Shown: positions 10,554 to 60,132 of the stretch, one piece after another
Layout: every line of letters begins with the position of its first letter
How positions within the stretch are numbered: position 1 is the stretch's first letter
From: Candidatus Omnitrophota bacterium
Lineage (GTDB): Bacteria > Omnitrophota > Gorgyraeia > Gygaellales > Profunditerraquicolaceae
NCBI GenBank assembly: GCA_028712255.1
Contig: JAQTQJ010000003.1
Span: forward strand, 7,173 to 71,172
Length of the DNA stretch: 64,000 bases
Direction: 5' to 3'
The notes under the pieces: generated by a model
Databases searched by the model: none
What the model was told of the DNA's origin: nothing
What the model saw: the letters and a program-made list of their open reading frames with translations, nothing else
Translations under genes and position numbers: made by a program

Positions 10554-12291
10554 TAGCTAAAACCTCCGAAAGCTTATTTTTTATTCCGCAGAGCTCTTCT
10601 TTTAAGGCGCTGTTATCGTTCCCTATCTTCGCAAGCTCGCTGCTTAAGTTCTCATTTCTCTTTGTAACTTCTCCGGCGTCTTCTAGAATCTGACGAATCT
10701 CTTCTTCTTGCTGTGCTTCCTCTGTTCCCCCGTCTTTAGGAATTTTTGAGTCAGCGGTTGTCTCCGGAAGGCCGAGCTCTTTTCTTTTCTGCTCTTCTCT
10801 TGCCCTCTGCTCCAAAATCTCCTCCCAGTCTTTGCCCTGCCCAGCTGCTTCATCTGCTAAGCTTGAGATATTTCCCGTAATAGCCTCCCTGGATGCCTTT
10901 ACTTCTTTAAGCGGATCCACCCAGGACCAGCCGGGAGCAATCCATCTTGCCCTCAGCCATGCAGATCTTGGCCTGCCTTTTTCGTAAAACTCAGCGGCCT
11001 CCAGCTCGCCCTTTAAGTACGCCTCTTCCAAAAGCATCTCCCAGACCGGCTGGCAGAGCTTTTGGGAGAGCCATTCCTGCCTAACCTTAAAATATCTCCT
11101 GGCTTCTAAGAGAGCTGCCCTTGCGCTTGAGTAATTGGTCTTAGAGAAATCTTTTGCCACCAGCTCATACGGAAGGCCAAGGGCTGCGGATATGGCTTTT
11201 AAGATTCTGTCTACGAACGGTTCAAACGTCGCGCTCGGCCTCTGGGGATTAAATGAGGTGATAGTCTCCCCAGGCATAAGATGCTTAATCATCCCGGGCT
11301 CTAAGGATTCCAGCATCTGACCGGAAGGATTTCGCTCGTAGGCGGAATTGACTGCCACATCCATCGAGGCCTCGGAAGTTATAAAAAGTGAGAAGCATGC
11401 TGCAATACGGCTGGCAACCAGCTCTGCCTCGGTATACTCGGCTAAATCTTTAAAATAGGTCAATACCGGAGCAAAAAAGGGAACGCCTCTGGTCTGGCCT
11501 GAACGCAAAACATAATACAAATGAAAAATATTTCTTCTGCCCATTACGCCCTTGGACTGGATTTCTATATACTGCTTTGCTTCTTCCGCAGACCGGTGAT
11601 AGATATCTCCGGGGTGCGTCTTTTGAATAAAGTAGGAAACCGGCTCGCCGTTTTCTCCGATCTTGACGCCAGACCTGACTGCCTTGTCGCTTTTTTTATC
11701 AGCCGGGGTGTTGAGCCTGTCTGACTCAATCACTTGCAGGGCCAACGGGTACGGCCTGCCGTTAGTTTCCAATCTCAACGGGACGATTATTGCCTCGCCG
11801 TTTTCTAAGATCTGCCTGTCTACTAACTGCTGGATCTCATAGAAGTCCATGCGCTCTCCGGCATCAGCATAAGGAGTCCAGCGCCTCCATACCTTTTCGG
11901 CTTTTCTTTGGAATTCGTCTGCCAGCCCCTCGTCTATGCCAAGTTCTTCCTTATCCACCCTGCTCTGAGGCCTGATGCCGGTGCCGATGACATTTACAGT
12001 CATCGTTGAGGTAATCCCTGCGGCGTGCGCGTCATTTCTGTTTAAATCGCGACTGCGCTCCCGGATATCGGATAATTCAGGCAGCAAGTCCTGGTCTGCC
12101 GAGCCTCCTCCGGGAATCCATGACGACCTTAGGCGGTCCCTGCTTGCGCCTTTATACGCGCCGAACTTCTGAGAAATATTTATTGCCTCGCGGTACATCC
12201 TGCGCTTAAACCCGGCCTTGGGGGAAAAGAAAGAAACGATATTGTCTATTGCGCCCGCGATTCTTTCTGAAAGTTTATTTTTAATTTTCAT
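10546..12291 (-). CDS. Portal protein (lambda B family)
   Basis: 581 aa. The N-terminal region KAGFKRRMYREAINISQKFGAYKGASRDRLRSSWIPGGGSADQDLL is characteristic of lambda-type portals. It follows W and the large terminase. Confidence 0.7.
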   Translation of the reverse strand: MKIKNKLSERIAGAIDNIVSFFSPKAGFKRRMYREAINISQKFGAYKGASRDRLRSSWIPGGGSADQDLLPELSDIRERSRDLNRNDAHAAGITSTMTVNVIGTGIRPQSRVDKEELGIDEGLADEFQRKAEKVWRRWTPYADAGERMDFYEIQQLVDRQILENGEAIIVPLRLETNGRPYPLALQVIESDRLNTPADKKSDKAVRSGVKIGENGEPVSYFIQKTHPGDIYHRSAEEAKQYIEIQSKGVMGRRNIFHLYYVLRSGQTRGVPFFAPVLTYFKDLAEYTEAELVASRIAACFSLFITSEASMDVAVNSAYERNPSGQMLESLEPGMIKHLMPGETITSFNPQRPSATFEPFVDRILKAISAALGLPYELVAKDFSKTNYSSARAALLEARRYFKVRQEWLSQKLCQPVWEMLLEEAYLKGELEAAEFYEKGRPRSAWLRARWIAPGWSWVDPLKEVKASREAITGNISSLADEAAGQGKDWEEILEQRAREEQKRKELGLPETTADSKIPKDGGTEEAQQEEEIRQILEDAGEVTKRNENLSSELAKIGNDNSALKEELCGIKNKLSEVLANG

Positions 12292-18098: not shown

Positions 18099-18115
18099 TT
18101 TCTTTGCCTCTATAT

Positions 18116-18148
18116 ATGTATACAGATTTTTTTCTTAAACTGTCACAC
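18116..18148 (-). promoter_or_regulatory. Promoter/operator repeat copy A (-35 GTGACA, 18-bp spacer, -10 TATACA)
   Basis: The 33-bp block atgtatacagatttttttcttaaactgtcacac is nearly identical to 19081-19113. It lies upstream of 17823-18098 on the minus strand. Confidence 0.5.
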
Positions 18149-19065: not shown

Positions 19066-19080
19066 ATTTGCTCCCTACAG

Positions 19081-19123
19081 ATGTATACAGATTTTTTTCT
19101 CAAACTGTCACACTCCTGTGACA
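19081..19123 (-). promoter_or_regulatory. Promoter/operator repeat copy B with the perfect dyad TGTCACA-ggag-TGTGACA overlapping the -35
   Basis: Same 33-bp block as copy A. The palindrome is at 19106-19123. Confidence 0.5.
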
Positions 19124-25554: not shown

Positions 25555-25640
25555 GGTTTTTAATACTATACAAAAGTTATAAGTTGTAGGCTTTAAGTCT
25601 AAGGCTTATATCTTACGACTTACAGCTTATCCCAAGCTTC

Positions 25641-35186: not shown

Positions 35187-35230
35187 AGAAACCGTTTCTA
35201 TTTTTTGTTTAAAAAATAGAAACGGTTTCT
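35187..35230. repeat. Palindromic extragenic repeat, copy 1
   Basis: agaaaccgtttctattttttgtttaaaaaatagaaacggtttct, then a T-run. Shares its core with the copies at 37270 and 39848. Confidence 0.7.
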
Positions 35231-35235
35231 TGTTT

Positions 35236-37260
35236 TTAGTCGCTAAAATAATCCTCTATATGTTCAAAAAAGGCCTTATTTCCGCTTCTTTTTTCTCCAA
35301 TAATATCTTCGATGTCTATATCATCCAGCTCATTTGAGCCACCTGAGCTCTGCACATCTACGAATTTATTAAGCAGATTGCCCTGTTCAAGGAACCGGGA
35401 AACCTGAGTAAAAACCGATCCACCATTGTCCATAAAACTCCTAGGAGATCGGTCAATATGCGGTTTTAATAAAAACAAGTTTACTTTGGCGCGCGTTGAG
35501 GCAACATAAAACAGGCGCCTTTCCTCTTCAATCTCATCCTCTGTTTCTAACGACAGGTACGACGGGAGGTGCCCTTCTGCAACATAGATTAAAAATACCG
35601 TGTGCCATTCCAGGCCTTTTGCCGAATGTATAGTTGATAAGGTAAGCGGGGAGTCAGTGTTATCTTTTTTACCAGCTTCTATCAAAGCTCTCTCCGGTGG
35701 CTCTAAAGCCATGTCCACCAAAAATTGTTCCACTGTTTTATAACGTTGAGCTATTCTTAAGAGTGAATCCAAGTCATTCAAGCGTTTATTAAAATCATCG
35801 TATTTGATTTTTAATAGCGGCTGGTAATACGCAAGAAACTTTTCAATAATTTTATCCGGCGTGTCAATTTGACAATTCAGATCTTTTAATATTTCAAATA
35901 ATTTCTTAAGCTCGCTATTTCTTTCCACTAACTCCTTAAAATCACCCTTATCTACAATCATTTGAATAATTTTTGCAGCGGTGACTGGGCCGATTTTAGG
36001 AATCAGTAAAAGAGCGCGTAACCAGCTAACCTGATCGTAGCTATTATAGGCAATGCGTAAATAGCTCATCAAGTCTTTAATGTGGGAAGCCTCCACAAAT
36101 TTCTGTCCTCCGTATTTTACAAAAGGAATATTACGGGAGGCCAGCTCGATTTCCAGGTCATTGGAATGCCAGCCTGAACGGAAAAGTACGGAAATATCTT
36201 TTAAAGCAACCCCCTCCTCTTTCAGCTCCAAAATCTTATCTGCCACAAAAACCGATTGAGAATTCTCGTCGGGACAATCAACAAAAACAGGAATATTCCC
36301 GTCTTTTTTCTTAGTATAAAGGTTTTTCTCAAATTTTTCTTTAGCTTGGGCAATAACCGCATTGGTTAAAGTTAAAATCGGCTGCGTTGAACGGTAATTC
36401 TCCTCAAGGGTAATAATTTTGGTGCCTTTAAAAATTTTAGGGAAATCAATGATATTTTTAAAATTTGCTCCGCGGAAAGAATAAATACTCTGGGCATCAT
36501 CGCCAACCACCATAATATTGGTATGGTCTGCTGCCAAAAGGCAAGCAATATGCGCCTGAAGCTTATTGGTATCCTGATACTCATCAACCATGATATATTT
36601 ATATTTGGAAGATATGCTCACACGCGCACCTTCATGATTGCTTAACAGATTTTTTAAGAAAACTAATAAATCATCATAATCCAGGAGTGATTTTTGGCGC
36701 TTATATTTAGTATATTCGTTACGAATCTTTTTTATCTCTTCGGTAAATTCCATAAACTGCGGGTATTCATCGTAAAGCACATCGCTGATATCTACGGATT
36801 TATTTACACTTTTAGAAATTGCTTCTAAAATGGCATGTTTTCGCGGAAAGCGCTTTTCGGATTTATGAAAACCCAGCTGTGTACGTACCAAATTTACCGC
36901 ATCCTCTGCATCCGCCTGATCGAGAATCGTAAAATTATTGCTTAGCTCTAGAAGCTTGGCATATTTCCTTAAAATCATATTGGCGAATGAATGAAATGTC
37001 CCGCCGGAAACATTTTTACAGCGCTCATCTAAAAGAATGCTTGCCCGCCGTAGCATCTCTTCAGCTGCCCTGCGCGTAAAAGTAAGCAATAAAATCTGCT
37101 CCGGGCTTACTCCTTGTTCAACCAAATAAGCTACCCGGTGCACTAAAACGCGAGTCTTACCGCTCCCTGCTCCTGCAATAACCAAGTGCGGGCCACAAAT
37201 GGATTCCACTGCGGCAAGTTGGGCGGGATTTAATTCTTTATGATAATCAATTTTTTTCAT
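35236..37260 (-). CDS. UvrD/PcrA-family DNA helicase
   Basis: Walker A (GAGSGKTRVL) and helicase motifs throughout. 674 aa. Confidence 0.85.
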   Translation of the reverse strand: MKKIDYHKELNPAQLAAVESICGPHLVIAGAGSGKTRVLVHRVAYLVEQGVSPEQILLLTFTRRAAEEMLRRASILLDERCKNVSGGTFHSFANMILRKYAKLLELSNNFTILDQADAEDAVNLVRTQLGFHKSEKRFPRKHAILEAISKSVNKSVDISDVLYDEYPQFMEFTEEIKKIRNEYTKYKRQKSLLDYDDLLVFLKNLLSNHEGARVSISSKYKYIMVDEYQDTNKLQAHIACLLAADHTNIMVVGDDAQSIYSFRGANFKNIIDFPKIFKGTKIITLEENYRSTQPILTLTNAVIAQAKEKFEKNLYTKKKDGNIPVFVDCPDENSQSVFVADKILELKEEGVALKDISVLFRSGWHSNDLEIELASRNIPFVKYGGQKFVEASHIKDLMSYLRIAYNSYDQVSWLRALLLIPKIGPVTAAKIIQMIVDKGDFKELVERNSELKKLFEILKDLNCQIDTPDKIIEKFLAYYQPLLKIKYDDFNKRLNDLDSLLRIAQRYKTVEQFLVDMALEPPERALIEAGKKDNTDSPLTLSTIHSAKGLEWHTVFLIYVAEGHLPSYLSLETEDEIEEERRLFYVASTRAKVNLFLLKPHIDRSPRSFMDNGGSVFTQVSRFLEQGNLLNKFVDVQSSGGSNELDDIDIEDIIGEKRSGNKAFFEHIEDYFSD

Positions 37261-37269
37261 TTAAATCTA

Positions 37270-37315
37270 GGGACCGTTTCTATTTTTTGTTTAAACAAAA
37301 AATAGAAACGGTCCC
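37270..37315. repeat. Palindromic extragenic repeat, copy 2
   Basis: gggaccgtttctattttttgtttaaacaaaaaatagaaacggtccc. This is a perfect 46-bp palindrome. Confidence 0.7.
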
Positions 37316-37353
37316 TTGTTTTCGGTTGGGAATCTATAAGTAGTTTTTTAGCT

Positions 37354-39609: not shown

Positions 39610-39847
39610 ATCCTCTTAAAAAAATCCCCGCAAATGTGCCGTTGGAACGATATTCTGAACCGATTTGGTTTCAGGTGGGTACCCTCTTCCTAGGCACTCG
39701 TGCCTAAGAAATTATGGGTTCCCGTGAAAATTGTGTTGGTTCAACAATTATCAGTTTTCCAACGTGCACCGCAGGGATATTTAAAAGAACCGTTTCATTC
39801 TAAATGAAGTATAGCACATATTTATAACAGAATCAACCTACCCTGCG

Positions 39848-39907
39848 AAAATCCAGGGACCTTTCTATTTTTTGTTTAAACAAAAAATAGAAAGGTCCCT
39901 GGATTTT
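39848..39907. repeat. Palindromic extragenic repeat, copy 3
   Basis: aaaatccagggacctttctattttttgtttaaacaaaaaatagaaaggtccctggatttt. The stem is extended and carries compensatory changes relative to copy 2. Confidence 0.7.
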
Positions 39908-39913
39908 AGATTT

Positions 39914-45705: not shown

Positions 45706-46359
45706 TTATTTTCCTTTTAGATGGAACTTTTCCCTGATTTCTTTAAGGCTGGAAACTTTAACTACTCCCATTAAGATATCTTTATCTTTCAGGACAGTTT
45801 TAGGCTCAGGTATAATAACCCCCTGCATTCTACGCAGGGCAACCACAATAAAATCTCCCGGAATATTTATATCCTGAATAATCTTTCCAACTAAATCATC
45901 TTTGATTTCAATCTCGAGCACTCCTAAATCCTTAGATTCAATTAGATAGCTGGAAAATCTGCTCTCAATAATCTTATCCCTGAGCATAGCCGAAAACAAC
46001 ATTGTCCCGCTAATAATATCTAGGCCAAGGGCTGCGTAAATATGGGCACGCTGCGGGTCATAGATACGTGCAAAAACTTTGGGCACGCGGAAAATCTTTT
46101 TAGCAACTTGAGCGCTAATTAAATTGGTGTTATCCCCATTAGCGACTGCGCAGAAAGCATCGGCCTTTTCAATCCCCACCTGCTTAAGGAGGGCCAAATC
46201 AAAACCATTGCCAACCATAGTCATCCCATTAAAGGTATCGCCAAGGCGGTTAAAAGATTCCCGCGACTTATCAATCACCACTACATCATGGCCTTCCCCG
46301 GATAAAAGCTTTGCTAATTCTGCTCCTACCCTACCACAACCCACAATAATTACATGCAT
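45706..46359 (-). CDS. trkA: Second TrkA/KtrA paralog
   Basis: VIIVGCGRVG Rossmann fold. Arranged in tandem with the previous gene. Confidence 0.75.
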   Translation of the reverse strand: MHVIIVGCGRVGAELAKLLSGEGHDVVVIDKSRESFNRLGDTFNGMTMVGNGFDLALLKQVGIEKADAFCAVANGDNTNLISAQVAKKIFRVPKVFARIYDPQRAHIYAALGLDIISGTMLFSAMLRDKIIESRFSSYLIESKDLGVLEIEIKDDLVGKIIQDINIPGDFIVVALRRMQGVIIPEPKTVLKDKDILMGVVKVSSLKEIREKFHLKGK

Positions 46360-46450
46360 GATCTCTCCAGCTTAAACTTTAAATCTCAAACAAAAGCTTT
46401 AAGCCGTAAGCTATAAGCTTAAAACTTAACACTTACAACTTACAGCTAAT

Positions 46451-46798
46451 TTATTCTTTTGATTTTTCAACCAGTTTTTTAAAAGCATGGCTGTCTCTAA
46501 CTGCTAAATCCGCCAAGATCTTACGGTCCAGGTTAATTTTAGATTTCTTTAACCCACTCATAAATGCGCTGTAGGTAATCCCAACTTCTCTACAAGCTGC
46601 ATTAATTCGCGCAATCCAAAGAGAACGAATTTCCCGTTTTTTATTCCTGCGGTCCCGGTAAGAATATTTAAGCGCATGCATCAGGACCCTTTTTGCCTGC
46701 TGGTATTGCTTACTATGGTCTCCCCAAAAACCTTTCGCTTGTTTTAAAACTTTCTTTTTTCTTTTTCGTGTTGCTACACTGTGTTTAACTTTTGCCAT
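46451..46798 (-). CDS. rplT: 50S ribosomal protein L20
   Basis: [24 protein letters not shown]... Start taken at ATG 46798. The ORF-track start at 46828 is an upstream extension. Confidence 0.9.
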
Positions 46799-46812
46799 TA
46801 TTGATCTCCTTA

Positions 46813-46863
46813 CCCACAAGGGTAACACCAGCGCAATTCCAATTAGCGCTGGGTGTAGCTTAT
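46813..46863 (-). promoter_or_regulatory. Conserved hairpin-plus-RBS leader element, copy 1 (upstream of rplT)
   Basis: ~85% identical to 55518-55567. On the minus strand it reads ACACCCAGCG-12nt-GCGCTGGTGT, CCCTTGTGGG, AGGAG, then 7 nt and the ATG. Confidence 0.5.
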
Positions 46864-46911
46864 TATTAAGGGTACATCCGCGTAAAACCTTTAAACGCCA
46901 GGTATTAGAAT

Positions 46912-47112
46912 CTATCCATAAGGTAACATGGATTTAATAAACCTTACTTCTTTTTTTCCGGCAAGCGTCCGGCGCCTCTTGAGGTTCCTGATCTTCTTTG
47001 TTTTTTTAGATGAAGCCAGGTGGCTCTTGCCTCCGGGTGAATATTTGACTTTGCCTCTCTTGCTAATTTTAAAGCGTTTAGCTACTCCTCTTTTTGTTTT
47101 TAATTTTGGCAT
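46912..47112 (-). CDS. rpmI: 50S ribosomal protein L35
   Basis: [22 protein letters not shown]... Confidence 0.9.
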
Positions 47113-47131
47113 TCTTTCTCCTTATTATACC

Positions 47132-47638
47132 TTATTTTGGGGCAATCACAAAAGACATAATTCTTCCTTCTAGTGACGGCGTTTTCTCCACCACTCCATC
47201 GCTCTGTGTCGAATCAATAAATTTATCTAAAACCTTCCTTCCCAAATCCAAATGCTCCATCTGCCTACCGCGGAAGAAAAGATTAACTCTAACTTTATCT
47301 TTTTTCTTCAAAAAGCTGATCACTTGTTTAACCTTAGTTTCGAAATCATGTTCATCAATATTGGGTTTGAGCCGGATTTCCTTTAAACGCCCCTGCTTTT
47401 GGTGCTTTTTTGATTCACGTTCTTTTTTCTCAAGGTCATATTTAAATTTACTAAACTCAATAATCCGGCAGACCGGCGGATTAGCCGCTGGAGCAACCTC
47501 TACCAAATCCAACTCGTGTTGATTGGCAATCTCCAACGCCCTCTGCACAGACATTACTCCTAGCTGGCCCCCATCATGCCCAATAACCCTAATCTGCGGT
47601 GAACTAATTCTGTCGTTAATCCTAATAAACCTTTTTAT
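47132..47638 (-). CDS. infC: Translation initiation factor IF-3 with a non-AUG (AUU/AUA) start
   Basis: The ORF-track ATG at 47554 truncates the protein. The in-frame upstream sequence encodes RINDRISSPQIRVIGHDGGQLGV, which matches the conserved IF3 N-terminus. ATT 47626 or ATA 47638 follows the in-frame stop. Confidence 0.8.
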   Translation of the reverse strand: MKRFIRINDRISSPQIRVIGHDGGQLGVMSVQRALEIANQHELDLVEVAPAANPPVCRIIEFSKFKYDLEKKERESKKHQKQGRLKEIRLKPNIDEHDFETKVKQVISFLKKKDKVRVNLFFRGRQMEHLDLGRKVLDKFIDSTQSDGVVEKTPSLEGRIMSFVIAPK

Positions 47639-47652
47639 AGCAGCCTCTCTTT

Positions 47653-49416
47653 CTATTTATGTTCCTGAATCCGGTTAATTAATTCCTCAATAAATTTATC
47701 TATTGCCACCACGCCCTGCTGGCCGCTTCCTTTTTTACGCACGCTTACCTGTTCCTGTTTTGCTTCACGCTCTCCTATAATTAAAGAATAAGGAGTTTTA
47801 TTTAGCTCGGCTTCGCGGATTTTTTTATCCAGAGTTTCATTACGTGTATCTATCTCCACGCGTATATTATTACTTTCCAACTTATTCTTTACTGTCTGAG
47901 CATAAGGAATAACTGTTTCTTTAATCGGAATTAACAAAACTTGGACTGGACTAAGCCATAAAGGCAACTCTCCCTTGTAATGTTCAATCAGGGCCCCGAT
48001 AAAACGCTCTAAGCTGCCCAACAGCACACGGTGCAGCATAATCGGCTGTTTTTCTTTTCCATCGGCATCAACATAGGCCAAATCAAATCTTTTAGGAAGA
48101 GCAAAATCACATTGGATAGTCGCGCACTGCCAAGTTCTCTTAAGCGCATCTTTTAATTTAATATCAATCTTCGGTCCGTAAAATGCACCATCTCCTTGAT
48201 TAATCTCATAAGATATCCCTCTTTCTTTTAGGGCATCCTCTAGCGCATCTGTGGCCTTTTTCCAGTCATCATCTGAACCGATATATTTTTCCGGACGTGT
48301 ACTTAACTCTACTCCCCACTGATCAAAACCAAAAACCTTCATTGTGTGAAAAACAAAATCAATGATGTTCTTTATTTCATCTCTGAGCTGCTCAGGCAAA
48401 CAAAAAATATGCGCATCATCCTGAGTAAATCCGCGCACACGTAATAACCCGTGCAAGACACCAGCTTTTTCCCGGCGATAAACCGTACCTAGCTCAAAGA
48501 ATCGTATGGGCAAATCTTTATAACTTCTAGTTTTTGATTTATAAATCAAGATATGCCCCGGGCAATTCATCGGTTTTAAAACAAATTCCCCGCCACACTT
48601 CTCGGCGGGCCCGCCAATGTTTTTGGCGGGCTTGCTATCCTCCATGTTGAGGATATACATATTCTCTTTGTAATATTCGTAGTGCCCGCTGGTCTTCCAA
48701 AGCGCAACATCCATAATGTGCGGAGTAATTACGATTTGATAACCACGTTTTAAATGTTCTTTCTTTTCATAATCTTCAATGATTGTGCGCAAAAGCGCCC
48801 CCTTAGGATGATAAAATACTAATCCGGCCCCTGCCTGCTCATGGTAAATATCAAAGAATCCTAATTGAGGGCCTAATTTTCTATGGTCACGTAATTTTGC
48901 TTCCTCTAAATTTTTTAAATACTCATCCAGCTCTTTTTGAGAATTAAAACATGTCCCATAAATTCTCTGAAGCATAGGATTAGTTTCAATCCCATGCCAA
49001 TAGGCACCGGCAACCGATAGTAATTTGAAAACCTTAATCTGGCCGGTAGATTCTATATGTGGGCCGCGGCATAAATCAAGAAAAGAGGTACCAGTTTTAT
49101 AAATAGAAACTTTTTCCTGCGCTAAATCCTGAATAAGCGAAACCTTATAATCCTCTTTTAATTTTTTAAATAACTCAATTGCTTGGGCCTTATCTAATTC
49201 TTCATGCAAGAATGGCTCATTTTTGGCAATAATCTGGCGCATCTTCTTTTCAATCGCCAACAAATCCTCGTCGCTAAATGGTTCTTTTTTGTCAAAATCA
49301 TAGTAAAAGCCGTCCTCAATAGAAGGGCCTATGCCTAATTTAACTTCCGGCCATAATTGTTTTACAGCTTCAGCCATAATGTGCGAACAGGAATGTCTTA
49401 GTGTATTTAAGTCCAT
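47653..49416 (-). CDS. thrS: Threonyl-tRNA synthetase
   Basis: HxxxH editing-domain motif and class II core. It heads the conserved thrS-infC-rpmI-rplT cluster. Confidence 0.9.
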   Translation of the reverse strand: MDLNTLRHSCSHIMAEAVKQLWPEVKLGIGPSIEDGFYYDFDKKEPFSDEDLLAIEKKMRQIIAKNEPFLHEELDKAQAIELFKKLKEDYKVSLIQDLAQEKVSIYKTGTSFLDLCRGPHIESTGQIKVFKLLSVAGAYWHGIETNPMLQRIYGTCFNSQKELDEYLKNLEEAKLRDHRKLGPQLGFFDIYHEQAGAGLVFYHPKGALLRTIIEDYEKKEHLKRGYQIVITPHIMDVALWKTSGHYEYYKENMYILNMEDSKPAKNIGGPAEKCGGEFVLKPMNCPGHILIYKSKTRSYKDLPIRFFELGTVYRREKAGVLHGLLRVRGFTQDDAHIFCLPEQLRDEIKNIIDFVFHTMKVFGFDQWGVELSTRPEKYIGSDDDWKKATDALEDALKERGISYEINQGDGAFYGPKIDIKLKDALKRTWQCATIQCDFALPKRFDLAYVDADGKEKQPIMLHRVLLGSLERFIGALIEHYKGELPLWLSPVQVLLIPIKETVIPYAQTVKNKLESNNIRVEIDTRNETLDKKIREAELNKTPYSLIIGEREAKQEQVSVRKKGSGQQGVVAIDKFIEELINRIQEHK

Positions 49417-50238: not shown

Positions 50239-50315
50239 TGGTGGGCCCAGGAGGATTTGAACCCCCGGCCTTTTCCATGTCAAGGAAACGCTCTAACCAA
50301 CTGAGCTATGAGCCC
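50239..50315 (-). tRNA. tRNA-Val (GAC) with encoded CCA
   Basis: Cloverleaf read by hand: acceptor gggctca/tgggccc, anticodon loop ttGACat, T-loop ttcaaat and a 3' ACCA. Confidence 0.8.
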
Positions 50316-50574
50316 GTCACTGCGCTGTTGCTTATTCTAAGCTTTTCGAAATATCTATGCTACTTTTGTATCTATTACTCCTGCCGCATTCTAATGACGC
50401 TTCGTTCCTTAGGAGGGGGCAAGCCCCCCTCCTAACGCTTATAGTCTAATACAATGAGACGCTGGTCTCCCCCAACCGCGGGGAAATTCTTTCCCCGCAC
50501 CCCTTGAGGTTTTTAACAGCATTTATTTTTACCACTAACGATATCCGCCAAAGGCGGATAGCTGTTAAAAACCT
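50316..50574 (-). other. Structured non-coding region with three strong hairpins (candidate small RNA or regulatory region)
   Basis: A 13-bp stem ggtttttaacagc...gctgttaaaaacc enclosing a nested atccgcctttggcggat, then gcggggaaagaatttccccgc, then aggagggggcttgccccctcct. No ORF and no T-run. Confidence 0.3.
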
Positions 50575-51000
50575 TCAGCTCTTATTCCTTACCAAAAAAC
50601 TAAGACTTCTTTCATCTATGGAAGTCCTTTTACCCCACAAATCTTTCCTCATCGCACTTACTACTTTTATGTATGACGAATAATCTGGATTACTAATAAA
50701 ATTCGCCATTTTCTTAATAACATCATCACTAGCGAATAAAATACTATTCAGCAATTCTGCTTCAACCTCATTCTTAAAATCTTGTATATTTTTTAAATCA
50801 GGTCTAAATTCTGACGCGTGACGCAATCCATTTTCCGGATCCAGAATTGTTAACATCTGGATAATTATAGATAAATATCTTTTACTTTTTAATTCATGTT
50901 CTTGTTCTTTTAGCTGCTTTTTCCGCTCGAATAGTGATTGAAAATATGCTCCCGATATTCCCGCTAATAAAGCAACTATAATCTGTGATAAGTTTGACAT
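50575..51000 (-). CDS. Hypothetical membrane protein
   Basis: N-terminal TM helix. 141 aa, AT-rich. Confidence 0.3.
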   Translation of the reverse strand: MSNLSQIIVALLAGISGAYFQSLFERKKQLKEQEHELKSKRYLSIIIQMLTILDPENGLRHASEFRPDLKNIQDFKNEVEAELLNSILFASDDVIKKMANFISNPDYSSYIKVVSAMRKDLWGKRTSIDERSLSFLVRNKS

Positions 51001-51081
51001 TTCATTAATTATAGACTATAGATCTATACTATAAATTAAACTGGACAGGAAGAAGCCGAATTCTTTCTACCCTTTAATAAA

Positions 51082-51165
51082 TGCCGGGGGAGGGAATCGA
51101 ACCCTCATATCCTTACGGACGGCGGATTTTAAGTCCGCATCGTATACCAATTTCGACACCCCGGC
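51082..51165 (-). tRNA. tRNA-Leu (TAA), type II with long variable arm
   Basis: Acceptor gccgggg/ccccggc, anticodon loop ctTAAaa, a 15-nt variable arm and T-arm gaggg-ttcgatt-ccctc. Confidence 0.75.
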
Positions 51166-51174
51166 AAAATCATT

Positions 51175-51834
51175 TTAATTAAGAATCGTTTTGCTTTTGC
51201 TCCAACCGTAATCTGAACCCAAACATTCATTAGCCAATTTTATTTTTCTTTCTAACCCAAAACAACCTTTATAATAACAGCATTCAGCAATTTTTCTAGC
51301 GGCCATTTTACCATATTTTAATACCCGGGTATTAGCTGCATTCTTATGTCTTTTACCGCAAACTTTTAATAATCGCTCTACTTTATTATCCAGCCAAGCC
51401 ATAAACTCTGCAGAGCCAGAATAAATCCTTAAACTCCATTGTTCTCTCTTATTAGTCGGATGTATCCAATGACGAATACAACCATCGCCATCAATAACAC
51501 CTCTTAAAAAATCAGGAAAATATTGCCTTGGTATTTTTATCGCACCCAGCGTCAATGATTTTTTTGGCGTAAGCCCGACAGATAACAAAAATTCATAAAA
51601 ACTTATATTCGCAATTTGCAAATGGTAAGATTGATTAATCCTACCTTTATTTTTCACGCCTATCTTATTCACTAAACTAAAACCCGATTTAATCTTCTCT
51701 AAAAACTCTGCGTCTTTTGAGGTTATATCAATATGTCTGCCATCTCTTGATAAACAGCCATCACTGGTAATCAAACCAACTAAATACCAAAGATTTGCTC
51801 CTTCAATTTTTAATTCTTTTCTGTGTGCTAGCAT
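51175..51834 (-). CDS. Free-standing LAGLIDADG homing endonuclease (two-motif, monomeric type)
   Basis: Two LAGLIDADG motifs, LVGLITSDGCL and LRGVIDGDGCI, separated by ~95 aa. 219 aa. Lies between tRNA-Leu and tRNA-Cys. Confidence 0.75.
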   Translation of the reverse strand: MLAHRKELKIEGANLWYLVGLITSDGCLSRDGRHIDITSKDAEFLEKIKSGFSLVNKIGVKNKGRINQSYHLQIANISFYEFLLSVGLTPKKSLTLGAIKIPRQYFPDFLRGVIDGDGCIRHWIHPTNKREQWSLRIYSGSAEFMAWLDNKVERLLKVCGKRHKNAANTRVLKYGKMAARKIAECCYYKGCFGLERKIKLANECLGSDYGWSKSKTILN

Positions 51835-51852
51835 CTTTCAAAAAAGTTTTAA

Positions 51853-51923
51853 GGCGACGAGCGGATTCGAACCGCTGAATAGTTCTTTTGCAGAGAACTG
51901 CCTTACCACTTGGCTACGTCGCC
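51853..51923 (-). tRNA. tRNA-Cys (GCA)
   Basis: Acceptor ggcgacg/cgtcgcc, anticodon loop ctGCAaa and T-arm agcgg-ttcgaat-ccgct. No CCA encoded. Confidence 0.8.
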
Positions 51924-54646: not shown

Positions 54647-55504
54647 TTATTTTCCTCCTTTAATAACACCAACTATGCGTTCTAAATCTTCCTGCGAATA
54701 AAATTCGATATTGATATGCCCGCGTTTTTTTCTTTTACTTATCCTGACCTTAGTGGCCAAGGCATGTTGAAGCTGTTCTTCAAGAATTGCCACAAGCGGT
54801 TCACGAGTGCCTTGACCGATACTTCTTTTTATTGAGCTAGGCCGTTTACTTTTTATCAGATTCTCCAGCTCGCGCACCGAGAGCCCCTTGGCAATGGTAT
54901 CCTGCGCAAGCCTTCGCTGTTGGTTCTCGTCCTCAATCTCAAGTAATGCCCTACCGTGTGCAAAACTAATCCGGCCCTTTTTCATCTCCCCCTGAATTTC
55001 ATGAGGAAGTTTAAGCAGGCGTAAAGTGTTAGTAATGGACACTCTTGCTTTACCTAAAACTTCACTGATTTTTTCCTGAGTAACTTGGAATTTATCAATT
55101 AAGTGTTGATAAGCATGCGCTTCTTCAATGGGATTTAATCCTTCCCTCTGGATATTTTCAATCAAAGCTAATTCAAGAGAATCCTGGTCGCTGACCTCTC
55201 TAACAATAACTGGTATCTCTTTTAATCCCAGCAAACTAGAGGCGCGAAATCTTCTTTCTCCGGCAATCAATTCATAATTGTCACCTCTTTGCCTAACCAA
55301 AAGCGGCTGAATAACACCTTTCTCTTTGATTGATTGCGCCAGCTCTTCAATGCTTTGCTGATCAAAATCTTCACGCGGCTGAAAAGGATTAGGTTTTATT
55401 TGTCCAGACTGGACATAAATAATCTCTTCTTTACGTGTTGTAGCATCAACCACCTTCTCAGGTATTAATGCACCCAAACCCTTTCCTAAAGCTCTTCTCT
55501 CCAT
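54647..55504 (-). CDS. parB: Chromosome partitioning protein ParB/Spo0J
   Basis: ParB box GERRFRAS, an HTH and a C-terminal dimerisation region. Start taken at MERRALGKGLGAL (55504). Confidence 0.85.
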   Translation of the reverse strand: MERRALGKGLGALIPEKVVDATTRKEEIIYVQSGQIKPNPFQPREDFDQQSIEELAQSIKEKGVIQPLLVRQRGDNYELIAGERRFRASSLLGLKEIPVIVREVSDQDSLELALIENIQREGLNPIEEAHAYQHLIDKFQVTQEKISEVLGKARVSITNTLRLLKLPHEIQGEMKKGRISFAHGRALLEIEDENQQRRLAQDTIAKGLSVRELENLIKSKRPSSIKRSIGQGTREPLVAILEEQLQHALATKVRISKRKKRGHINIEFYSQEDLERIVGVIKGGK

Positions 55505-58797: not shown

Positions 58798-60132
58798 ATG
58801 GTTGAGCTTATTAAGAATTGGGAAGAAGCACAGGTAGATTTAAAGACAAGGATGGGCGATACTATCTTTGCTACCTGGATAGCTCCGCTGAAGTTTTTAC
58901 CTCAAGATAACCACAGTATAAATCTTGAGGCTCCAGACCAATTTTTCAAAGACTGGGTAGAAAAACATTATCTTGAACTTATTCGGGATACCTTAAAACG
59001 TAAGGGCGTGGATAATCTGTTAGTAAAGTTAGTTGTCAGCACCGCTCAAAGCGATTTATCTATTCCTTCTAACAATGAAATCAGTATCAAGAACGCTCCA
59101 TCTGCTAGTTGTATCAATCTTAATTCGCGTTATACATTTGAAAATTTTGTTATCGGGGCTTCCAATAGGCATGCGCACGCCTATTCTTTAGCTGTAGCCA
59201 ACTCACCGGCTAAAACATATAATCCATTATTCATTTATGGAGGAGTGGGGCTGGGAAAGACCCATTTGATCCAAGCTATCTGCCATCAAATAAAAAACAA
59301 TAACCCAACGGGAATAAAAATATGCTATGTTTCGAGTGAAAAATTTACCAACGAGCTTATCGACGCTATAGCGCATCGTTCTACTAATGCTTTTCGCCAA
59401 AAATACCGCAACCTCGATGTCCTTGTTATTGATGATATTCACTTTATCGCAGGAAAAGAATCTACTCAAGAGGAGTTTTTCCACACCTTCAATACTTTAT
59501 ATGATGCTCACAAACAAATTGTATTCTCCTCAGATCGGCCGCCTAAAGAAATTACCAACCTACAGGAACGGCTGATTTCACGGTTTGGGTGGGGCCTGGC
59601 TACAGATGTCCAGCCCCCAGATCTAGAAACACGCGTGGCAATCCTAAAGAAGAAAATTGAACGTGAACCCGTCACGGTTCCCGATGATGTAATATTTTTT
59701 ATCGCTCAATTAATTAAAACCAATATTCGCGAACTAGAAGGCGCCTTAATCAGAACGATTGCCTATTCTTTGCTAGAGGAAGCTCCGGTTACCTTACAAT
59801 TAACTAAAGAGGTACTGAAAGACCTGCTCAAAGAACCTACAAAATTAATTACTGTAGATTTTATCCAACGCTGCGTAGTCGAGGAATTCGGAGTTTCTTT
59901 ACAGGACCTTAAAACAAAAAGACGCAACAAACAAGTTGTGCTTCCACGACAAATTGCTATGTATTTAAGTAGGGAATTAACGGATTTATCTCTCCCGGAA
60001 ATCGGAGAACTTTTTGGTGGCAAAGATCACACTACAGTTTTACACTCTTACAATAAAATCAAGGAAGAGATTATCCAAAACCCGGAGCTAAAAGGAAGGG
60101 TTGAAAAAGTTATTCAAGTTGTTAAACAGTAA
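58798..60132 (+). CDS. dnaA: Chromosomal replication initiator DnaA
   Basis: AAA+ Walker A GGVGLGKTHL, sensor motifs and a C-terminal DNA-binding domain. 444 aa. Confidence 0.95.
   Translation: MVELIKNWEEAQVDLKTRMGDTIFATWIAPLKFLPQDNHSINLEAPDQFFKDWVEKHYLELIRDTLKRKGVDNLLVKLVVSTAQSDLSIPSNNEISIKNAPSASCINLNSRYTFENFVIGASNRHAHAYSLAVANSPAKTYNPLFIYGGVGLGKTHLIQAICHQIKNNNPTGIKICYVSSEKFTNELIDAIAHRSTNAFRQKYRNLDVLVIDDIHFIAGKESTQEEFFHTFNTLYDAHKQIVFSSDRPPKEITNLQERLISRFGWGLATDVQPPDLETRVAILKKKIEREPVTVPDDVIFFIAQLIKTNIRELEGALIRTIAYSLLEEAPVTLQLTKEVLKDLLKEPTKLITVDFIQRCVVEEFGVSLQDLKTKRRNKQVVLPRQIAMYLSRELTDLSLPEIGELFGGKDHTTVLHSYNKIKEEIIQNPELKGRVEKVIQVVKQ

Follow-up and report, generated by a model that had tools for sequence, protein, structure and literature searches.

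A two-hairpin repeat family of Candidatus Omnitrophota, probably mobile or unstable, stands flush with Shine-Dalgarno sequences, including those of rplT and parB

Analysis of a 64,000-nucleotide (nt) stretch of a Candidatus Omnitrophota bacterium (GenBank assembly GCA_028712255.1, contig JAQTQJ010000003.1, positions 7,173 to 71,172 of the forward strand; hereafter the window) showed that the short segments preceding the genes for ribosomal protein L20 (rplT) and ParB (parB) are two independent occupants of GGAG-type sites. Both belong to a dispersed, structured and orientation-specific family that is insertion-polymorphic, stands flush with GGAG-type sequences and nests in its own loop. Gain, loss, tandem amplification and nesting of these units took place on the time scale separating genomes that are about 80-85% identical in DNA. 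The units were read, with a probability of roughly 0.7, as a mobile or unstable structured repeat family of Candidatus Omnitrophota, similar to repetitive extragenic palindromes (REP), mycobacterial interspersed repetitive units (MIRU) and miniature inverted-repeat transposable elements (MITE). The structured interspersed repeat is a known kind of element; the placement flush with ribosome-binding sites and tRNA genes, the self-nesting in the loop and the phylum-wide conservation are unusual. No description of such a repeat was found in the literature, Omnitrophota genomics papers included.

The first-pass annotation of the window had reported two look-alike minus-strand segments before the rplT and parB starts, and this was confirmed. 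Both segments showed one layout, composed of a first hairpin (hp1), a second hairpin (hp2), the Shine-Dalgarno (SD) sequence AGGAG, 7 nt and an ATG. The hairpin and the layout stood as annotated, while the loop, given as 12 nt, was found to be 11 nt, and the stretch CCCTT(G/A)TGGG was a second hairpin that had gone unrecognised. The features of the two loci were as follows.

46856-46825, minus strand: hp1 of the rplT unit, ACACCCAGCGC / TAATTGGAATT / GCGCTGGTGT, paired as ACAC + bulged C + CAGCGC / 11-nt loop TAATTGGAATT / GCGCTG + GTGT; covariance model score 66.9 bits
46824-46811, minus strand: hp2 of the rplT unit, TACCC-TTGT-GGGTA
46810-46806, minus strand: SD sequence AGGAG of rplT, part of the target site and not of the insertion; 7 nt, then ATG at 46798
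46798-46451, minus strand: rplT, the downstream gene (ribosomal protein L20; PF00453, synteny)
46905-46861, minus strand: decayed tandem unit, ATACCTGGCGT..ACGCGGATGT + ACCCTTAATAATA; 10.1 bits, E 0.42
47112-46912, minus strand: rpmI (ribosomal protein L35), the upstream gene; stop TAG at 46914-46912, 6 nt before the decayed unit
55560-55529, minus strand: hp1 of the parB unit, ACACCCGGCGT / TTATTTGAATT / GCGCCGGTGT, paired as ACAC + C + CGGCGT / TTATTTGAATT / GCGCCG + GTGT; covariance model score 63 bits
55528-55517, minus strand: hp2 of the parB unit, TCCC-TTAT-GGGA
55516-55512, minus strand: SD sequence AGGAG of parB, kept in all relatives; 7 nt, then ATG at 55504
55504-54647, minus strand: parB, the downstream gene, with its true start at ATG 55504 (PF02195, PF17762, PF23552)
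56328-55564, minus strand: parA, the upstream gene; stop TAA at 55566-55564, 3 nt before the parB unit

The rplT and parB units were 84% identical over 43 nt without gaps (repeat finder, family D13), and the motif ACACCCRGCG-N8-16-GCGCYGGTGT had exactly two matches in the window versus none in 100 shuffles. The hp1 stem consisted of 4 base pairs (bp), a bulged C and 6 bp. The A-T versus G-C difference between the two stems was compensatory, as the annotation had also noted, and the hairpin was preserved. Both units folded better than shuffled sequence (z = -3.4 for rplT and z = -2.9 for parB), and the SD was essentially unpaired in the predicted folds of both. The decayed unit lay just upstream of the rplT unit and occupied the remaining rpmI-rplT spacer; its fold was lost (z +1.4). 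An unfiltered covariance-model run over the 64-kb window showed no intact copy beyond the two. The window covers the replication origin region, with dnaA at 58798-60132 (plus strand), a divergent rpmH-yidC-jag-parAB cluster and a sign change of the GC skew near 60 kb.

Five syntenic relatives (L137-L141) were retrieved through ParB homologues. Their ParB proteins were 88-90% identical to that of the window, and the DNA of L137 was 80-85% identical; the window ParB itself had a 100% identical counterpart in a Candidatus Omnitrophica metagenome-assembled genome (MAG). The occupancy of five spacers was as follows.

rpmI-rplT: a decayed and an intact unit in the window; one unit in L138; empty in L137, L139, L140 and L141
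infC-rpmI: no unit in the window, L137 or L138; one partial unit in L139; one partial plus one intact unit in L140; at least four units, some nested, in L141
parA-parB: one unit in the window; a nested pair in L137; one unit in L138; a relic in L139, L140 and L141
parB-ndk: filled in L137; empty in the window, L138, L139, L140 and L141
rplT-trkA: a different repeat in the window; filled in L138; empty in L137, L139, L140 and L141

The empty rpmI-rplT spacer measured 18-24 nt in L137 and L139-L141, and 14 nt in P0008, a 92%-identical relative known from its gene table alone. It read TAG ATTTTA AAGGAG AAAATA ATG in L137, and the filled site of L138 read ATTCTA[ACACC...GCCCTTGTGGGC]TAGGAG. The decayed and intact units of the window stood at the same point as the L138 unit. 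The extra DNA of the window spanned 46904-46812, flush with AGGAG, and the BLAST breakpoint against L137 fell at 46905/46811. Empty infC-rpmI sites read GGTATAATAAGGAG. The extra DNA was always immediately 5' of an AGGAG shared by the empty allele, which makes the SD a part of the site and not of the element.

Insertions also altered the ends of neighbouring genes. In L137 the 3' end of parB contained the parB-ndk unit (10845-10912), and a TAG of the hp1 loop now terminates the gene. The 3' end of parA carried a unit in L137 (9889-9908) and L138 (9940-9954), where the open reading frame (ORF) ended at the hp1-loop TAG and the C-terminus was altered. In L139-L141, parA was about 11 codons longer, read through the unit relic and overlapped the parB start. 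Gain, loss, amplification and decay thus all occurred within the shallow clade formed by the window and L137-L141, and the decayed window copy and the relics of L139-L141 represent the ordinary birth and death of copies.

The different repeat noted above at rplT-trkA was a 73-nt sequence found at 46378-46450, where it fills that spacer, and at 25558-25630, the two copies being 73% identical. Since the rplT-trkA spacer is short (about 8-25 nt) in L137 and L139-L141, this sequence, rich in TAAG/CTTA words, appears to be a further repeat family of the insertion type.

The annotation had suggested that the element was portable and specific to its lineage, and had proposed a search for further copies and covariation elsewhere. 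Both suggestions were borne out, and the search was strongly positive in genomes and metagenomes alike. When one genome per GTDB species was searched with a strict motif, 16 loci were obtained, 12 of which had the full hp1-hp2-SD-ATG layout before different downstream genes (rplT again, gdhA, gmhA, aroC, exbD, acpP, ssb and cysK among them); the other 4 were rejected as chance matches in GC-rich coding DNA. Ten of the 12 full-layout genomes were labelled Omnitrophota, and the remaining two were MAGs filed under Planctomycetales and Bacillota. A looser motif gave at least 120 metagenome loci. The covariance model had 142 matches in the first 100 of the metagenome loci listed, with additional copies in the GTDB loci, and the scanner collected 178 distinct units in 150 arrays. 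The copy density was about 1 site per 30-40 kb. Viral contigs contained no match to the motif. A gathering-score Rfam search of the whole window showed no family matching the element, the L20 leader RF00558 included, and E-value searches of three element regions gave chance-level matches only (E > 0.7).

The two MAGs with other labels, L002 (Planctomycetales) and L011 (Bacillota), each carried a perfect unit. Their contigs may be mis-binned Omnitrophota DNA; the cysK context of L011 was shared with the Omnitrophota locus L016.

A unit was about 44-48 nt long. The sequence of hp1 was conserved, with the consensus RYAC-C-YNGCGC, the 11-nt loop TWAWNKGWATT and GCGCN'R-GTRY. Directly after it came hp2, with a stem of 4-5 bp and a 4-nt loop that was mostly NNGT; its sequence was free and its pairing was kept. 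Of the 178 units, 159 had a perfect hp2 hairpin; 62 different 5' stem sequences were represented, and 99 units had hp2 stems of at least 5 bp versus 8 in shuffles. Covariation was scored on 67 distinct units of equal length. Units were selected by at least 7 of 10 Watson-Crick pairs, together with a perfect hp2 in this alignment, and the search patterns fix part of hp1. Paired cells amounted to 98.8% versus 79.5% in shuffles, double-change cells numbered 200 versus 60, and all slid controls collapsed. Within hp1, pair 7 was CG in 31, GC in 28 and AU in 5 units, C-G changed to U-A at pairs 2 and 6, and G-C changed to A-U at pair 8.

Other structural assignments were considered for the unit. A CsrA-type reading with GGA in the loop was rejected, since many loops had TGA or GGT in place of GGA, and an attC reading was rejected on sequence and housekeeping gene context. 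No intrinsic terminator was called in 46300-47700, where hp2 is followed by AGGAG and by no U tract.

Arrays were followed by an SD and an ORF on the same strand in 117 of 150 cases. Between the end of the last hp1 and the SD, the modal distance was 10-15 nt, which places hp2 flush with (A)AGGAG(G); nested composites gave rise to another mode at about 40 nt. Same-strand tandem arrays were found in L003, L009, L101, L125 and L130. Nested composites were frequent, with a complete inner unit, usually starting with GCACC, located in the outer hp1 loop between its 5' part TWAWNNG and its 3' part AATT. At least six arrays (L024, L038, L073, L095, L109 and L134) reached the 5' ends of tRNA genes, namely tRNA-Pro (CGG/UGG) and tRNA-Gly (UCC), whose 5' ends are G-rich, and therefore the element is not confined to translation starts. 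No single clear target of 4-5 nt was common to the nested and tRNA sites. An upstream ORF on the same strand ended within 120 nt of 77 of the 150 arrays; by a rough ORF-based classification about half of the arrays were intercistronic and about 30% followed a divergent gene. The distance from the upstream stop to the unit was often 0-6 nt, and 0-35 nt for most copies. The opposite-strand arrays of L101 each faced their own gene, with rsfS and argS on one strand and rpmB on the other. The 112 distinct downstream proteins matched 124 Pfam families, the commonest being phosphoglycerate kinase (PGK) and L20 with three members each, and the downstream gene set is no regulon.

Arrays also affected gene calling. 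The longest argS ORF of L101 (1409-3331) starts inside a repeat array that is open in one frame, and arrays can inflate ORF calls by about 100 codons.

New DNA stands, in sense orientation, immediately 5' of a pre-existing GGAG-type sequence, usually an SD and sometimes the G-rich 5' end of a tRNA-Pro or tRNA-Gly gene. Under the favoured reading, the conserved hp1 would serve as the handle for a propagation factor acting in trans. The best guess for this factor is a hairpin-recognising single-strand DNA transposase of the HUH/Y1 type, as with REP elements and their REP-associated tyrosine transposases (RAYT) or with IS200/IS605-derived elements; this precedent fits best because terminal inverted repeats (TIR) and target-site duplications (TSD) are absent and empty sites are clean. 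Orientation could follow the gene through the choice of GGAG targets on the sense strand together with selection against insertions in coding DNA. From its position, the unit is co-transcribed with its genes and makes up the final 45-50 nt ahead of the ribosome-binding site. Its effect at the RNA level is probably near-neutral, as two self-contained hairpins would leave the SD unpaired, and at most the unit may modulate mRNA stability or translation. Where a unit lands in the 3' end of an upstream ORF, a TAA, TAG or TGA of the hp1 loop could stop that ORF.

Several observations weigh against the mobile-repeat reading. No mobilising gene was found in the window, beside the arrays examined or among the 25 commonest downstream families shown, all within genome fragments, and the 3.6 kb between the inverted arrays of L101 contained rsfS, argS, recJ and rpmB and no transposase. 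No consistent TSD was present in the filled and empty pairs, the frequent 5' AG/3' AG being explained by base composition, and the unit ends (ACACC... and ...hp2) were not inverted repeats of each other. The 5' flank was weakly biased (G in 43% at -1; A in 41% and T in 32% at -2). The hp1 sequence, loop included, was conserved across very different Omnitrophota, which would fit a selected RNA function, as would the very precise SD-adjacent placement; this family-wide conservation is in part by construction, most copies having been found with window-derived patterns. Many downstream genes were housekeeping genes with the appearance of high expression (those for ribosomal proteins, DnaK, ClpP, enolase and PGK), a further feature that a selected RNA function would fit. 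Mismatches at unbiased hp1 pairs comprised about 5-7 G.U versus 6-9 A.C, with no sense-strand bias, and such counts cannot tell RNA folding from single-stranded DNA folding. The copy number of tens to about 100 sites per genome is an extrapolation only.

The foremost alternative, possible although unlikely, is a functional RNA module. In it, a conserved Omnitrophota RNA-binding protein or endoribonuclease would bind or cleave hp1, and hp2 would remain as a protective 5' hairpin presenting the SD, so that the element punctuates polycistronic transcripts and tRNA precursors and has spread by selection and not by selfish mobility. The orientation, always sense and flush with an SD or a tRNA 5' end, agrees with such a module, as do the unpaired SD of the predicted folds, the many highly expressed downstream genes, and an hp1 whose asymmetric loop and bulged C are conserved in sequence beside an hp2 conserved in structure only. 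Internal single mismatches of hp2 point the same way, with 7 G.U and 4 A.C as tallied in a small sample, about half of the A.C being judged geometry artefacts. Against this, filled and empty sites occurred among relatives with about 90% identical ParB and an unchanged SD, decayed copies were tolerated, and tandem arrays of at least four units and nesting add nothing obvious to an RNA function; the hp1 mismatch counts were likewise free of the sense-strand bias. We know of no partner protein for the module.

Distinctly unlikely is an Omnitrophota-specific system that recognises GGAG-type sites, of which the unit would be the cis element and so more than selfish DNA; it could take either of two forms. 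In the first, a 46-nt structured cassette would be inserted precisely at ribosome-binding sites and into its own loop, which, if true, would represent a way of selecting targets that is new among mobile elements. In the second, a dedicated RNA-binding or RNA-cleaving "operon punctuation" protein would cut polycistronic and tRNA precursors at hp1, leaving a protected hp2-SD 5' end.

The first-pass annotation had treated the element as a leader of rplT and parB, possibly regulatory or promoter-bearing, and these proposals did not survive. A gene-specific cis-regulatory leader, that is, an operator for feedback by L20 and/or ParB or a lineage-specific riboregulator of both genes, was considered very improbable. 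The position immediately 5' of the SD in both genes and the compensatory change would suit it, but units precede more than 100 unrelated genes as well as tRNAs. The unit was missing from the rpmI-rplT spacer of 4 of the 5 close relatives (L137 and L139-L141) with AGGAG retained, and from the short spacer of P0008, and it is therefore not a required regulator of rplT. The related claim that the element replaces the usual L20 autoregulatory leader position also failed. No L20 leader was detected anywhere in the window, and no other Rfam family matched the unit. Known L20 operators lie upstream of infC (the Firmicutes L20 leader, RF00558) or of rpmI (Escherichia coli), and not between rpmI and rplT.

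A portable promoter cassette, with boxes resembling -35 and -10 (the loop sequence TTGAAT, for instance) from which transcription would begin shortly before the SD, was held to be just as implausible. Some loops do read TTGAAT, and the arrays located after a divergent gene would be in a suitable position. A sigma-70 consensus scan, however, made no call in the unit, and the sole promoter-like call of the rplT region (47151-47124) lay outside it, at the infC-rpmI junction. The loop varied (GGAAT, GGTAT, TGAAT), and hp2, which varies freely, occupied the -10 distance. About half of the copies stood between co-oriented genes, often 0-6 nt after the stop and mostly within 35 nt of it, and a transcript starting in the unit would be nearly leaderless. 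Chance similarity or a one-off local duplication in this genome, to which the presence of only two intact copies in 64 kb might point, has a negligible probability in view of the zero motif matches expected from shuffles and the hundreds of covarying copies in other genomes and metagenomes.

Omnitrophota are uncultured, ultra-small bacteria that are abundant in groundwater and sediments, and their gene expression signals are almost unstudied. A conserved unit of about 46 nt beside ribosome-binding sites provides a phylum marker for binning. The unit is also a source of strain-level length polymorphism in core operons, including the origin-proximal parAB and infC-rpmI-rplT, and a cause of annotation errors, with ORFs extended through arrays and the C-termini of ParA and ParB altered. 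It further offers a natural experiment on hairpins directly 5' of the SD and translation. The insertion specificity would be unusual if placement flush with the SD results from a choice of target.

Other features were recorded in the window and its relatives. Three AT-rich palindrome copies (TTTCTATTTTTTGTTTAAACAAAAAATAGAAACGG) at 35191-35241, 37277-37327 and 39862-39912 were 67-82% identical and may be shared bidirectional terminator-like hairpins. A 39-nt direct repeat (D14) was present at 18110-18148 and 19075-19113, 92% identical and 965 nt apart. A 6S RNA gene was located at 39621-39780 on the minus strand (Rfam RF00013, 70.5 bits). The region 50242-51923 contained tRNA-Val, tRNA-Leu and tRNA-Cys and two ORFs (141 and 219 aa); L137 had about 115 nt with one tRNA match at this position, an indel of 1.5 kb between the flavoprotein/coaBC-like gene and thrS. 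Free-standing ORFs resembling LAGLIDADG homing endonucleases were found between housekeeping genes in L138 (13677-14351) and L140 (8755-9216) and were absent from the window.

Among known systems, the REP elements of Proteobacteria, which also form bacterial interspersed mosaic elements (BIME) and are associated with RAYT transposases of the Y1/HUH type (Nunvar et al. 2010, PMC2817692), share several properties with the Omnitrophota unit. Both are short, GC-rich, imperfect palindromes in non-coding DNA that show compensatory stem changes, occur in clusters and are co-transcribed within operons, and in both the sequence is conserved across related genomes, implying a trans-acting recogniser. 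As a dispersed palindrome, the Omnitrophota unit had an hp1 of 10 bp plus a bulge in 12 genomes and at least 120 metagenome loci. In contrast to REPs, the conserved GT(A/G)G 5' head was not seen in its flanks, its clusters were same-strand tandem or nested instead of alternating inverted pairs, and it stood 5' of the SD in sense orientation, while REPs lie mostly 3' of genes in either orientation. It also had a second, sequence-free hairpin, and no RAYT gene was found near the arrays examined.

The MIRU of mycobacteria were reportedly described by Supply et al. in 1997. They are intercistronic units of about 46-100 nt in direct tandem, with strain-variable copy number and a fixed orientation, interacting with neighbouring stop and start codons; they were described without dyad symmetry and with small coupling ORFs. 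The Omnitrophota unit was likewise in direct tandem, intercistronic, in one orientation and variable in copy number (for example, from 0 to at least 4 units at infC-rpmI), and upstream ORFs ended in the hp1 loop in L137 and L138. It differed in having two hairpins, in nesting within itself and in occurring also before tRNAs, and it carried neither a coupling ORF reaching the downstream start nor a consistent small ORF.

Miniatures derived from IS200/IS605, including palindrome-associated transposable elements (PATEs), and hairpin-ended MITEs lack TIR and TSD, have subterminal hairpins and insert strand-specifically and flush with a short target. The unit's lack of TSD, its strand specificity and its GGAG-adjacent junctions are compatible with such a family, although its nested and tRNA sites point to no one clear target; the clean empty sites would be compatible with precise excision. 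The unit is different in its length of only about 46 nt and in an apparent GGAG-like target on the 3' side of the sense strand, and no tnpA was identified for it in the genome fragments. In L101, where neighbouring genes face opposite ways, each array is still oriented with its own gene, in keeping with a choice of target and not of replication strand.

Correia elements of Neisseria (Correia repeat enclosed elements, CREE, or neisserial miniature insertion sequences, NEMIS) are 100-150 bp long with 26-bp TIR and a TA duplication, and are found in either orientation; their hairpins in mRNA can alter processing and expression, and their presence is polymorphic among strains. They are alike in being abundant, small, gene-adjacent, co-transcribed, hairpin-forming repeats of polymorphic presence, while their length, TIR, TA duplication and dual orientation were not seen in the Omnitrophota unit. 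The L20 leader or operator is also a structured RNA of the infC-rpmI-rplT operon; it differs in its location upstream of infC or rpmI, in size and in fold, and the unit had no Rfam match and was absent from the rpmI-rplT spacer of most close relatives. Synthetic ribosome-binding-site insulators of the RiboJ type are an engineering analogy only; the unit contains no ribozyme. They similarly have a stable hairpin that ends at the SD and shields it from the upstream context, and such shielding of the SD is a plausible reason why the Omnitrophota unit may be tolerated where it stands.

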